Source: a virus (Duplodnaviria > Heunggongvirae > Uroviricota > Caudoviricetes). Taken from it: DNA of 12,544 nt. Of the stretch, positions 3,144 to 6,072 are shown one piece after another. Where the stretch lies: IMG/VR virus record IMGVR_UViG_3300029858_000327, one strand, 5' to 3'. The notes under the pieces were generated by a model, which saw only the letters and a program-made list of their open reading frames with translations, had not been told where the DNA came from and searched no databases. Position numbers and translations under genes: made by a program. How positions within the stretch are numbered: the stretch's first letter is position 1; every line of letters begins with the position of its first letter.

Positions 3144-3359
3144 ATGATGAACAGAATTTCTAAATCATGCCTGATACTGGTTGTAGCGGCATTATCAGTA
3201 TTTATCCTGTCCAACCACAAGGACTATTCATCCGAAATAGTAGAAGGAATCAGCGAAAGCGCACTTGAATCAATACGCTGCAAAATCGGCCATGATGCCG
3301 GAAACGCGGAGATTGCCAGAGAATACCTTAACAATAAATCATTTTACGATGCTCAATGA
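3144..3359 (+). CDS. Hypothetical protein with an N-terminal hydrophobic/TM segment
   Basis: 71 aa, tightly packed between neighbouring ORFs, with hydrophobic CLILVVAALSVFIL. Confidence 0.65.
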   Translation: MMNRISKSCLILVVAALSVFILSNHKDYSSEIVEGISESALESIRCKIGHDAGNAEIAREYLNNKSFYDAQ

Positions 3360-3588
3360 GACAGCAATATTCCTTGCCATGAATGACAAGACTTTTGGCC
3401 TTCGCGAATCCGCATCCATTGTAGGAGGAATGAAAAGGCTTTCAATGCTTCTTGATTCAGGCAAGATAAGATACACCAAGAAGAGCGAAAAGCAGAATGC
3501 CAAGCTATTCTGCAACGCATGGGACGTTCTTAAGCACGCATCAATAGAACGTGCAAGAGCAGGACGGCCAAGAACAGACGCCTGTTAG
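3349..3588 (+). CDS. Putative excisionase-like / winged-HTH DNA-binding protein
   Basis: The probable start is ATG 3349 (79 aa), inside the tracked 3265 ORF. FGLRESASIVGGMKRLSMLLDSGKIR...FCNAWDVL resembles the MerR/Xis-type wHTH pattern. The function is inferred. Confidence 0.6.
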   Translation: MLNETAIFLAMNDKTFGLRESASIVGGMKRLSMLLDSGKIRYTKKSEKQNAKLFCNAWDVLKHASIERARAGRPRTDAC

Positions 3589-3650
3589 TTCAACGGATAG
3601 AACGGAAGTTTCCTAAATTTCAGATCCGGGTTCGATTCCCGGACCGGTGA
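3579..3650 (+). tRNA. tRNA-Arg(CCT)
   Basis: Cloverleaf: acceptor CGCCTGT/ACCGGTG (one T-C mismatch), D arm GTTC-AACGGATA-GAAC with A20, anticodon arm GAAGT-TTCCTAA-ATTTC (CCT at 3612-3614), T arm CCGGG-TTCGATT-CCCGG, A73. CCA is not encoded. Confidence 0.88.
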
Positions 3651-3662
3651 CTATAAAAAAAC

Positions 3663-3674
3663 GGTCTTTGACAT
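3663..3674 (+). promoter_or_regulatory. boxA-like antitermination motif
   Basis: GGTCTTTGACAT resembles the boxA consensus (T/C)GCTCTTTAACA. It is followed by a GAAA-capped hairpin and lies in an early operon with a downstream terminator. Confidence 0.5.
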
Positions 3675-3690
3675 TCTTAAAATAAAAATG

Positions 3691-3753
3691 TGTACCAATA
3701 AAGAAATGTTGCTTAGCGGAAACGCGGTAATGGCATCCGGGCTTTTTGGTACA
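3691..3753 (+). ncRNA. Long imperfect hairpin capped by GCG-GAAA-CGC
   Basis: TGTACCAA (3691-3698)/TTGGTACA (3746-3753), then AAAG/CTTT and ATGTT/GGCAT, with an apical GNRA tetraloop at 3716-3725. Confidence 0.5.
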
Positions 3754-3798
3754 TTAACAAGTCCAATTTGCTTTAGATTATAAAAAAATGGCTGGGTA

Positions 3799-3891
3799 TG
3801 TCCCTTAAAGACAAGGTAACGCTTGCGGCACCCCTTGTGGTAAGATTCCACCGGAGAAATCCGTGACAGGTTTAAGCCTTCGAAGGGGACA
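3799..3891 (+). ncRNA. Multi-branched structured RNA candidate
   Basis: Closing stem TGTCCCT/GGGGACA. Internal ACAAGG/CCTTGT stem with a G-CTTG-C tetraloop, a CGGA-GAAA-TCCG hairpin and an AGG/CCT hairpin. Confidence 0.5.
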
Positions 3892-3944
3892 GATTTTGTC
3901 CATAGTATGAGTGTTTTTCATATTAGATTTAGTTTTGGTTTGAT

Positions 3945-3980
3945 AAATACATTCACTCCTGTGAAGGCCTGAATGTATTT
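3945..3980 (+). other. Strong hairpin with a GTGA (GNRA) tetraloop just before the CAT tRNA
   Basis: AAATACATTCA-CT-CCT-GTGA-AGG-CC-TGAATGTATTT: an 11-bp perfect stem, a 2x2 internal loop and a 3-bp apical stem. Confidence 0.65.
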
Positions 3981-3987
3981 CAATACC

Positions 3988-4061
3988 GGACCGTTAGCTC
4001 AGTCGGTCAGAGCGGCAGACTCATAATCTGAAGGTCCACGGTTCAAGCCCGTGACGGTCCA
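3988..4061 (+). tRNA. tRNA with CAT anticodon, probably tRNA-Ile2 (lysidine-modified) rather than Met
   Basis: Acceptor GGACCGT/ACGGTCC-A, D arm GCTC/GAGC, anticodon arm (G)CAGA-CTCATAA-TCTG(A) with CAT at 4022-4024, T arm CACGG-TTCAAGC-CCGTG. C4-G69 and C5-G68 are TilS determinants. There are no initiator features (no 1-72 mismatch, no GGG/CCC anticodon stem). Confidence 0.9.
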
Positions 4062-4117
4062 CGTTCGTGAGAATAATTAATTCCGTTTTATGTTTATTGG
4101 TAACACAACTATCGGCA

Positions 4118-4184
4118 GAGCCTGTATTTCAATGGTAGAATAACGGTTTTTCCGTAGATAAGAGTTCGATTCTCTTCGGGCTTT
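4118..4184 (+). ncRNA. tRNA-like RNA with a shortened anticodon arm (pseudo-tRNA or mimic)
   Basis: Acceptor GAGCCTG/CGGGCTT, D arm TTC-AATGGTA-GAA, T arm AAGAG-TTCGATT-CTCTT. The anticodon arm is only ACGG-TTTTT-CCGT (13 nt instead of 17). Confidence 0.75.
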
Positions 4185-4265
4185 CTAAAGCTTTTTTATT
4201 ATTAAAAACTAAACCAAGGGAGCCGTACACCCTATAAGCGTATCCAATCCAAGGAAGCGGAGGTA

Positions 4266-4324
4266 GGCTGATTTTCCGAAGGGGTCCACCGAAAGGTGAA
4301 TGGGTTCGAGTCCTATATCAGCCA
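4266..4324 (+). ncRNA. 59-nt mini tRNA-like RNA with D and anticodon arms replaced by 4-nt-loop hairpins
   Basis: Perfect acceptor GGCTGAT/ATCAGCC plus A, T arm ATGGG-TTCGAGT-CCTAT, and a middle of TCC-GAAG-GGG and CACC-GAAA-GGTG. Confidence 0.7.
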
Positions 4325-4341
4325 CATCGAAAGCATTTTTT

Positions 4342-4424
4342 TATGAATTGCGTATGAATACGCCAGGGCACTTGATTGTCGTATGCGTTGGGAATGCGTT
4401 GGGAATGCGTTACGGTTGATGCGT
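4342..4424. repeat. 11-bp tandem repeat array (ATGCGTTGGGA) with an upstream TATGAAT pair
   Basis: ATGCGTTGGGA at 4383-4393 and 4394-4404, ATGCGTT at 4405-4411 and ATGCGT at 4419-4424. TATGAATTGCG and TATGAATACGC lie at 4342-4363 and include the palindrome GCGTAT-GA-ATACGC. Confidence 0.8.
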
Positions 4425-4491
4425 GTCTGAGTATGTCAGGCGGCGGCTGCGCAAGCAGTGTGCACCGTGGAAAAGATGGCAAACACACCGT

Positions 4492-4535
4492 GCAAGACGT
4501 CCCGCAAGACGTCCCGCAAGATGACGGCAAAAGAC
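4492..4535. repeat. 12-bp tandem repeat array (GCAAGACGTCCC)
   Basis: Exact copies at 4492-4503 and 4504-4515, then degenerate GCAAGATGACG and GCAAAAGAC. CACCGTG is also repeated at 4463 and 4486. Confidence 0.8.
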
Positions 4536-4655
4536 AGTGTCTGCGAGCTAGTAAATACGCGTTAATAAAAAAAATGACAAAGAGAAATCAATAGCGGATT
4601 ATTTTTTTAATGCGTCCGCTAAATGGGTTTGCTGTACACTTTCGCCAAAAATACT

Positions 4656-4897
4656 TAGCAAATGCTAGCAATTGCTACCATTTGCAAGCTTTTGCCAGAT
4701 TTGCTAGAAGTTGCTTTCAATTGATAGAATTCTATTAAAGTTTGAATAAGACAAGTCAGATTAAAATTAAAATAATCATCTGATTTACACTAAGTTAAGA
4801 AATAGTTTTAGCAAACGTAGCAAATGCTAGCAATTGCTACAGATAATGATATATAATATATATGAGTGTATATTATTATCCCCTTTATATTCCCCTT
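4656..4897. repeat. 10-bp-period TAGCAAWTGC arrays plus an AT-rich tract; candidate replication origin
   Basis: About seven units at 4656-4724 and three at 4809-4840. The exact 23-bp repeat TAGCAAATGCTAGCAATTGCTAC occurs at 4656-4678 and 4818-4840. An AT-rich tract covers about 4841-4880 and TCCCCTT occurs twice. The origin role is inferred. Confidence 0.7.
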
Positions 4898-4907
4898 AGA
4901 AATTTCA

Positions 4908-4939
4908 GCTTGTCAGGATTTACCTGACAGGCTTTTTTT
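4908..4939 (+). terminator. Intrinsic terminator
   Basis: GCTTGTCAGG-ATTTA-CCTGACAGGC stem followed by T7. Confidence 0.8.
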
Positions 4940-4958
4940 ATAACCAAAATTCAGTCTT

Positions 4959-5138
4959 ATGGAAGAAAAAGAAAAAACAATTCTGCTTTTCGGAAGCTCC
5001 TCAAAAGGAGATCTTGTAATTGTTCAGAGACCGGAGGAAAATAATTCCTACCTCAATGAAAAGATTCTGATTCTTGACGAATCACAGCAAAACCAGTTAA
5101 GGAACTATCTAAACCAAAAAATTAAATCAAATGAGTAA
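4959..5138 (+). CDS. Small hypothetical protein (59 aa)
   Basis: Not in the ORF track. Manual translation: MEEKEKTILLFGSSSKGDLVIVQRPEENNSYLNEKILILDESQQNQLRNYLNQKIKSNE*. It overlaps the recT start by 8 nt. Confidence 0.65.
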   Translation: MEEKEKTILLFGSSSKGDLVIVQRPEENNSYLNEKILILDESQQNQLRNYLNQKIKSNE

Positions 5139-6072
5139 CGTAGCATTGAAATTAAGTGAATTCCAGAAGTACAATGCAGAGAACATTCTGGATTGCGAAG
5201 CGGTAATGGAAAAAGTCGTAGAGGTGTACAACCTGATGCACGGAGAAGGTGGTGAAGCTTTCTTCGAACGGGAAAGACAGAACTTTCAGAAGATTATCTC
5301 AGAAAGCATCTACCTTAAAAAGTGCACGGCATTTTCGATTTATACCAGCATCATCGACTTGTCTGTGTATAATCTGTCAGTAGAACCCGGAGCACAGGCA
5401 ACTGCATACCTGATTCCGCGAAATGTGAATATCGGAAAGGGTTCTGACGGTAAGGACGTCTACGAGACACGATGCACCCTGAAGATTTCCGGTTACGGTG
5501 AACTTGTCATACGCGCGTCTGCCGGTCAGATTCTATATGCTGACAATCCGATCGTTGTATATGACAATGACGAATTTTCTTGTTCGGTCAGCGGAGAGAA
5601 GAAAAGCGTTGAGTACAAGTGCAACCTTCCTCACAAGGGTCATCAGGTAATAGGATGCTTCATCCGCATAGTACGTAGTGACCGTTCCGTAGATTATTCC
5701 TGGCTCCTTGAAGAAGAGATTGAACGTCTTAAGGGTTACTCTTCCAAAGCAAACAAAAAATGGAATGAGAGGGAAAGGAGATACGAATGCAAGGCTAATG
5801 AGCTTTACACTTCGAATGACGGAAGTATAGATACCGGTTTCCTGATTGCCAAGACAATCAAGCACGCTTTCAAGACTTATCCAAAGATTAAGGTCGGAAA
5901 GAGCACGGTATTGCAGTCTGAGGATCCGGAACCTGAAAAGACGGAAGATATATACGGAGTTCAGACAGATTCAGTACCATCAGATAATGAACGTCCTTTC
6001 GGCCCTCCGGTAAACGATATGGCTAAGGGGGTTACGATTGACAATTCATCGAATCCTGACAGCCCTTTCTAA
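5131..6072 (+). CDS. recT: RecT-family single-strand annealing recombinase
   Basis: 313 aa with RecT motifs LKKCTAFSIYTSI..LS, AYLIPR, ISGYGELV, VVYDNDEF, KTIKHAFKTYP and an acidic tail ending in PF. Confidence 0.88.
   Translation: MSNVALKLSEFQKYNAENILDCEAVMEKVVEVYNLMHGEGGEAFFERERQNFQKIISESIYLKKCTAFSIYTSIIDLSVYNLSVEPGAQATAYLIPRNVNIGKGSDGKDVYETRCTLKISGYGELVIRASAGQILYADNPIVVYDNDEFSCSVSGEKKSVEYKCNLPHKGHQVIGCFIRIVRSDRSVDYSWLLEEEIERLKGYSSKANKKWNERERRYECKANELYTSNDGSIDTGFLIAKTIKHAFKTYPKIKVGKSTVLQSEDPEPEKTEDIYGVQTDSVPSDNERPFGPPVNDMAKGVTIDNSSNPDSPF

Follow-up and report, generated by a model that had tools for sequence, protein, structure and literature searches.

The left end of a temperate phage, whose host is likely a gut member of the Bacteroidales, contains a 59-nt tRNA-like element that retains an acceptor stem and a T arm and is without an anticodon arm. 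This element, termed here the 59-mer, is real and constrained, and as judged from its sequence it is likely to be a leucine tRNA minus the 3′ strand of the D stem and the whole anticodon arm, a reduction from 82 to 59 nt. Among the roles considered, the one that we tentatively favour, at a little short of an even chance, is that of a cut mark for RNase P and RNase Z that would release an uncharged mini-tRNA. The 59-mer is apparently undescribed in print.

The DNA analysed (the window) is 12,544 nt in length. The features that frame the element are given below by position and strand.

877-919, minus: attachment core, the 3′ part of tRNA-Thr(CGT)
2084-2719, minus: repressor with a peptidase S24 domain
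3349-3588, plus: small ORF heading the RNA block
3579-4940: 1.3-kb non-coding block that follows small rightward ORFs
3579-3650, plus: tRNA-Arg(CCT), called by ARAGORN and Rfam
3988-4061, plus: tRNA with a CAT anticodon (Met, or Ile2 if modified), called by ARAGORN and Rfam
4118-4184, plus: 67-mer, its D and T arms normal and its anticodon loop collapsed (Rfam tRNA, 49 bits)
4216-4265, plus: 50-nt motif with two short predicted hairpins, adjoining the 5′ end of the 59-mer
4266-4324, plus: the 59-mer, tRNA-like and without an anticodon arm, from fold, chance test and conservation
4907-4940, plus: terminator-like hairpin with a U run at the end of the non-coding block, ahead of the recombination genes
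5131-6072, plus: RecT (PF03837), the first large gene past the RNA block

RecT shares 44% identity with gp5 of Bacteroides phage BKO1-TP3, and downstream of it lie a PDDEXK-like protein, an SNF2 helicase and others. The assignment of the host is based on this match and on the presence of the 50-nt motif in nine named Bacteroides genomes. The small ORF at 3349-3588 is, from its position, presumably excisionase-like; the 107-aa ORF that contains it had no Pfam match. The T-arm part of tRNA-Thr(CGT) is found at both ends of a ~64-65 kb prophage in two relatives, and a circular 64.4-kb relative is present in one sequencing run; with the attachment core placed in this tRNA, the 59-mer is ruled out as the integration site. 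An integrase at 1-771 lies outside the attachment core, is missing from the circular relative and is likely part of a neighbouring element. A scan with what we take to be the Bacteroides promoter motif gave 11 matches against 12.7 expected, none of them just upstream of 4266. Among the public RNA runs listed, 8 of 24 were covered, and in their assembled contigs depth was flat or very low, with equal coverage of coding and non-coding sequence and no common contig end at 4266 or 4324, a pattern that speaks neither for nor against a discrete RNA.

Other parts of the non-coding block are also of note. A conserved motif at 3790-3897 is predicted to form a multi-way junction with a 7-nt-loop arm, a variable hairpin and a closing C/G stem; copies occur in related sequences (L021 1713-1822, L023 1638-1750, L168 2563-2672 and L175 785-890), 4 of its 27 predicted pairs carry a double change across seven sequences, and it has no Rfam match. 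A hairpin at 3949-3981 (z -5.6), with a GTGA-containing loop, follows a T/G-rich stretch; similar GTGA-loop hairpins recur between RNA elements, in the spacers of L040 and L060, and they bring to mind boxB-like antitermination sites. Short repeats, both tandem and inverted, lie at 4380-4860; they are conserved at 66-80% identity in relatives, lack a clear intact ORF and are possibly origin-like iterons.

The predicted minimum-energy fold of the 59-mer has a free energy of -21.5 kcal/mol (z -2.2), which 4 of 200 shuffles equalled, and divides the element and its trailer as follows.

4266-4272/4317-4323, plus: acceptor stem, with discriminator A4324
4273-4286, plus: shrunken D region, a small GAAG-loop hairpin and a run of four G
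4287-4298, plus: GAAA hairpin, placed where a variable arm would be and most similar to that of tRNA-Leu
4300-4316, plus: T arm, loop TTCGAGT
4325-4328, plus: conserved 4-nt trailer, invariant in six of six aligned variants including the L023 type

Numbered within the element, the predicted acceptor stem (1-7/52-58) consists of seven Watson-Crick pairs out of seven and is followed by discriminator A59, the T stem (35-39/47-51) has 5 bp with one G-U, hairpin 1 has 3 bp (10-12/17-19) closed by the GAAG loop, and hairpin 2 has 4 bp (22-25/30-33) closed by the GAAA loop. A first-pass annotation of this DNA had proposed a 59-mer with a perfect acceptor stem, discriminator A and a TTCGAGT T loop; its coordinates are exact and the predicted fold agrees. 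It had also described two neat hairpins with 4-nt loops, and both loops are indeed of this size, but hairpin 1 is not neat: four registers lie between -21.5 and -18.9 kcal/mol, three of them within 1.0-2.6 kcal/mol of the minimum. The lowest-energy fold leaves one G in the D loop and a free GG is available only in registers 1.0-2.6 kcal/mol higher; formation of an elbow therefore needs a less stable register.

When set against the canonical tRNA model (RF00005), the 59-mer has the 7-bp acceptor stem with discriminator, the 5-bp T stem and the 7-nt TTCRA loop, and lacks the anticodon arm with its 7-nt loop, having 4-nt loops only. Without this arm it is non-decoding, as had been claimed. It does not encode CCA, and the host tRNA genes compared are likewise without encoded CCA. 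A descriptor that requires the T loop, 5/5 pairs in the T stem and 7/7 in the acceptor found three sites in the window, and any site at all in only 1 of 1000 dinucleotide shuffles of the sequence. ARAGORN called tRNA-Arg and tRNA-Met alone in the window and Rfam gave no match to 4266-4324 at E<=5, which bears out the expectation that tRNA scanners miss the 59-mer.

In class II tRNAs, the variable arm sits just before the T stem. A single nucleotide separates the GAAA hairpin from the T stem, so that the hairpin occupies the variable-arm slot and not the anticodon slot. A DNA search of 401 Bacteroidales genomes returned five partial matches and no full copy of the 59-mer; three of the five are the variable arm and T arm of class II tRNA-Leu(TAG), which agree with the 59-mer at 24/25, 24/25 and 24/26 nt. 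Over the 12 nt that precede the T stem, 5 of 64 Leu and 0 of 228 other tRNA-like sequences agree with the 59-mer at 10 or more, a count that is supportive only, as these 292 sequences were enriched for look-alikes by the searches. Two further likenesses to Bacteroidales tRNA-Leu are the discriminator, A73, and the spacing of positions 13-15 (G13 A14 A15) and 18-20 (G18 G19 U20). Since the variable arm of tRNA-Leu is the best match to the GAAA hairpin, the anticodon arm looks deleted and not replaced, and the earlier claim that GAAA stands in place of the anticodon loop is not borne out as written. After loss of the arm, the 59-mer would have gained its small compensating hairpin. In comparison with the 82-nt tRNA-Leu it is 23 nt shorter and non-decoding, its D stem is remodelled, and position 48 is A. 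The alternative to descent from tRNA-Leu is convergence on a GAAA tetraloop.

The contrast in rate between the element and the fourfold sites of RecT is stronger evidence for constraint than covariation. Compared with two related phages (L021 and L022), the 59-mer is identical at 54 of 59 positions, with the central 26 nt unchanged, whereas RecT fourfold sites are identical at 32 of 97 and 36 of 95 (33-38%). The true tRNA genes of the region stand at 70/72 and 73/74. Conservation is unbroken over a 113-nt block, 4216-4328, and drops to 47-61% identity in the flanks against the same two phages. Each of the four between-lineage changes that fall in stems leaves the bases paired (simulated chance 0.03-0.08); among them is one compensatory pair. 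Across the five distinct variants, 94 of 95 pair cells are paired, T-stem pair 36-50 being C-G, U-G or U-A; the closing pair of the GAAA hairpin is broken in one lineage, and position 8 is U, or A in one lineage. The first-pass annotation had looked to homologues with compensatory change, and these are found to the extent of this one pair, with pairing kept; covariation alone is not significant with five variants (202 of 500 shuffles score as high).

The distribution of the 59-mer is narrow. Copies were present in 10 of 10 viral pattern matches, all in phages 97-99% alike, and in 12 of 22 phages that carry the upstream ORF, being absent from 9 of the 22. The 17 metagenome matches to the upstream motif comprise 12 with the 59-mer, 1 with a different mini element and 4 due to chance. 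In L023 and L313 a different element of ~55 nt is found at the same distance from the 50-nt motif. It has a T arm and a single GAAA hairpin, its acceptor is imperfect, with 6 bp, and it shares its 3′ end with the 59-mer. A search for the GAAA plus T-arm pattern in viral contigs, covering 119 of about 190 stretches (90 distinct), gave no distant homologue; it yielded the known copies, ordinary tRNAs (many of them class II) and a few unresolved short parses. On 151 Bacteroidaceae genomes, the model R1 gave matches of 23-30 bits only, against 95-98 for true copies, and the 13 short matches inspected were 12 ordinary tRNAs and 1 that is not a tRNA. The GenBank phage collection had no full copy of the 59-mer, and alignment of the upstream ORF to genome contigs gave no match.

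A Leu-like origin, a narrow distribution that leaves out 9 of 22 related phages and the mosaic nature of phage genomes would all suit a neutral relic, that is, a broken tRNA-Leu pseudogene that looks conserved only through recent block transfer between phages. We consider this very improbable: pairing survives in 4/4 changes at paired sites, the T-stem pair runs through the series C-G/U-G/U-A, the edges of conservation coincide with those of the element, the shortened D region has gained pairing of its own, and anticodon loss has occurred in parallel in other types with strong covariation. The 113-nt block may, perhaps, have been exchanged recently between phages.

The 50-nt motif is 48/50 identical in L021 and L022 and has no Rfam match. 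By estimate it is matched in about 250 viral stretches, some by chance, and it is widespread in Bacteroides prophage early operons (L036-L154, L177-L185 and L369). Of 56 distinct contexts, 54 have upstream of the motif a tRNA or tRNA-like element whose 3′ end is no more than 50 nt from the motif start; the contexts represent only about six or seven lineages, and the elements about six unrelated types. Where the 59-mer lies here, many other prophages instead have a terminator-like hairpin downstream of the motif, as read by eye. An alignment fold gives one 4-bp stem, and one double change seen by eye suggests a second short stem. Theta (HDV-like) ribozymes reportedly form a nested double pseudoknot directly 3′ of a tRNA; the 50-nt motif is 12-49 nt from the tRNA-like end, has no Rfam ribozyme match and folds into the one 4-bp stem. 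We regard it as an independent element and a candidate new RNA, either an antiterminator or a processed small RNA. The motif runs right up to the first nucleotide of the 59-mer, and the predicted cut point is 48 nt from the motif start in every carrier, L023 included.

Motif and mini-tRNA could also act together in cis and uncut, as one 113-nt RNA module of the nascent early transcript with a role in, for example, antitermination or as a nuclease barrier. This is unlikely: the unbroken conservation of 4216-4328, with about 50% on either side, and the position of the block upstream of a terminator-like site before the recombination genes speak for such a module, but the 50-nt motif usually occurs without the 59-mer, the 96-nt fold predicts no pairing between the two beyond weak flanking pairs, and an intact acceptor stem with a free 5′ leader is expected to attract RNase P.

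If the 59-mer is a cut mark, it would be transcribed within a rightward early operon and its elbow would fold; host RNase P would then cleave the early transcript of the phage just where the element begins, and RNase Z and the CCA-adding enzyme would finish the 3′ end. Two products would result, the RNA of the upstream 50-nt motif and a small mini-tRNA that is probably uncharged. Loss of the anticodon arm would keep the determinants of processing, and remove both decoding and the target of anticodon nucleases. Three papers describe precedents: bacterial RNase P tolerates large truncations (PMC4919922), a 7-bp acceptor stem lets the YrlA RNA of M. smegmatis be cut and CCA-tailed (PMC4201824), and menRNA serves as an RNase P/Z processing signal (PMC11693755).

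Several observations lead us to favour processing. The parts that were kept, a 7-bp acceptor stacked on a T arm, are what processing enzymes read, and Bacteroides genomes encode RNase Z (5/5) and RNase P RNA (4/5). The slot is interchangeable, as the L023 mini element indicates, with the cut point coinciding with the 3′ boundary of the 50-nt motif, which itself comes shortly after a tRNA or tRNA-like element almost throughout (54/56 contexts), and the neighbouring 67-mer slot keeps fold, not sequence. Lastly, the positions of the acceptor and T stem-loop equal those of menRNA. According to the menRNA report (PMC11693755), menRNA and mascRNA are of the same size class as the 59-mer and share with it a four-way layout without an anticodon, a small D hairpin, a compact second hairpin and almost no linkers; the acceptor (1-7/52-58) and the T stem-loop (35-51) fall at the positions published for human menRNA. 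For menRNA both processing and the elbow are proven in that text, whereas the 59-mer is known from sequence and predicted fold. The phage element also differs in its setting, an early operon and not the 3′ end of a vertebrate lncRNA (MEN-beta or MALAT1), and in its second hairpin, which is shorter and matches the bacterial Leu variable arm; there is no sign of common ancestry. The 59-mer thus resembles menRNA in build without belonging to the mascRNA/menRNA family.

The main point against a cut mark is that the sequence of the 59-mer is far more conserved than would be required of a simple cut mark, and far more so than that of the 67-mer, which hints at a specific partner or at recent exchange of the 113-nt block. 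Its absence from 9 of 22 phages and the less stable register required for the elbow also count against it.

Binding to EF-Tu requires aminoacylation, and recognition by EF-Tu, which had been attributed to the acceptor and T-arm modules as such, therefore does not stand as written, several LeuRS hinge determinants being missing as well. Were LeuRS to charge the 59-mer, the product would be a leucylated, non-decoding tRNA that could bind EF-Tu, sequester LeuRS or donate leucine off the ribosome. Charging is conceivable because an anticodon-deleted tRNA-Leu can be charged: E. coli tRNA-Leu minus the anticodon arm is chargeable if A73 and the D/T contacts are kept (PMC9976931), and the 59-mer has A73 in all variants, a Leu-type variable arm and G18 G19 U20 at the canonical spacing from the 5′ end. 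We nevertheless hold it to be decidedly unlikely. The A15-U48 pair and A20a, needed according to the same study (PMC9976931), are both missing (in 5/5 variants the T stem is preceded by A and U20 is followed by C), U8 is A in one lineage, and mascRNA, the structural analogue, is reported there as uncharged. With these hinge features gone (A48, no A20a, varying U8), lack of charging is favoured.

The 59-mer is one of several mimics. Homologues of the neighbouring 67-mer slot are 52-54% identical and 11 of 16 pairs covary, a value reached by 0 of 500 shuffles (six sequences, about four lineages). The 67-mer still has the layout of a class I tRNA and the 59-mer looks Leu-derived, so the two likely have different parents; the graded series from tRNAs to mimics that had been proposed holds as a description of the elements but not as a line of descent from a single parent. 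A descriptor scan of L001-L185 found that the corresponding early region of Bacteroidales prophages holds tRNA-like elements of several unrelated types. When 43 distinct prophage elements, each 60-78 nt long, were put through a rough automatic parse, 23 gave a loop of 3-6 nt where the anticodon loop would be, and these fall into about six families; of 23 host controls, 22 gave a 7-nt loop and one was misparsed. No acceptor identity is common to the mimic types. In view of the recurring families and the covariation of the 67-mer slot, loss of the anticodon with retention of the acceptor and T arm is recurrent and selected.

A rival reading is a decoy acting in trans. Here, the processed mini-RNA would accumulate and titrate enzymes that bind the acceptor end or elbow of tRNA, such as the anti-phage tRNA-modifying toxins of the host or of rival elements, with decoding undisturbed. 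The near-invariance of the 59-mer, approaching that of true tRNA genes (70/72, 73/74), is the reason that this reading keeps its weight; the early-operon position beside real tRNA genes suits it too, as does the finding of several mimics of different kinds in each prophage, apparently beyond what punctuation requires. It remains a minority possibility, as the mimic types share no acceptor identity and an RNA without an anticodon loop would be a poor decoy for anticodon nucleases. A fuller version, in which a tRNA-Leu without its anticodon arm has converged on a menRNA-sized fold and yields a stable, CCA-tailed early RNA that is a trans decoy against defence enzymes aimed at the acceptor end or elbow of tRNA, and an interchangeable module of a toolkit of such mimics found across Bacteroidales prophages, is a minority possibility of the same order. 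The layout of the 59-mer fits a processing signal somewhat better than it fits a decoy.

Among bacterial RNAs, YrlA (RF02553) is likewise an anticodon-less tRNA mimic of bacteria and phages, one member of which is cut by RNase P and CCA-tailed; as described in PMC4201824, YrlA is permuted (T arm, acceptor, D arm) and lies beside Ro60, unlike the 59-mer with its normal order. A Y RNA was rejected on this order, on the lack of an RF02553 match at E<=5 and on the lack of Ro60 (TROVE) in five of five near-complete relatives (91-100% complete; the positive control was found in 2 of 14 genomes). The tRNA-like domain of tmRNA resembles the 59-mer in having an acceptor and T arm, a reduced D region and no anticodon. 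A tmRNA domain was rejected as well: there is no G3-U70 (pair 3 is C-G), no reading frame or pseudoknot domain and no ARAGORN tmRNA call, and SmpB was found in none of five relatives. Species 1 RNA of phage T4, one of the RNase P substrates of phages, is a stable non-tRNA RNA in a phage tRNA cluster that is matured by tRNA-processing enzymes; it is longer, and the 59-mer differs from it in being a minimal four-way junction in a temperate phage.

The literature searched, mostly by title and the start of the abstract, held no description of the 59-mer or of anticodon-less mimics in Bacteroidales prophages. To our knowledge, an anticodon-deleted tRNA-Leu has so far existed only as an engineered construct. 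Four 15-nt spellings of the motif were absent from those supplementary files of Fremin and Bhatt 2021 (PMC8040213) that were searched; the alignments of that study may hold these motifs. In the available part of a review of non-canonical tRNAs (PMC7609411) the word phage is absent, and the available part of PMC8007984 has nothing that bears on the 59-mer. If the present reading is true, the 59-mer is a natural version of the engineered tRNA-Leu and a counterpart, in the bacterial world, of menRNA and mascRNA that arose independently. More generally, the 'intergenic' early regions of gut prophages are home to conserved tRNA-like RNAs, which escape ARAGORN and Rfam or are given the wrong label by them.

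The cultured Bacteroides phage BS-TP3 (PQ571276), with a related mimic and the same 50-nt motif, makes punctuation and decoy directly testable. Its mimic (L369 3380-3489), unannotated in this phage and found also in L044 and L073, is a 110-nt tRNA-like element with normal D and T arms, in which a long irregular stem replaces the anticodon loop; it lies 12-13 nt ahead of the 50-nt motif. A 65-nt tRNA-like element in L168 (3393-3457) has a UUCG tetraloop as its anticodon loop, and the neighbouring tRNA(CAT) in L168 and L171 has an altered 8-nt loop. Arrays of at least three aberrant tRNA-like elements occur at L040 736-1474 and L060 765-1475 and in L178 and L181-L183 (71, about 98, 67 and 83 nt); they sit in prophages of named Bacteroides genomes, and Rfam labels some of the elements as tRNA and misses others. 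In L021 (2389-3084) and L175 (about 1004-1702) the tRNA(CAT) is split, its anticodon arm being replaced by a ~640-bp insert. This carries an ORF that looks HNH-like by eye, together with an odd tRNA-like gene of 77 nt whose loop contains TAT. Part of this insert is also present in L005, L308 and L311, and it looks like a homing cassette that swaps tRNA genes.
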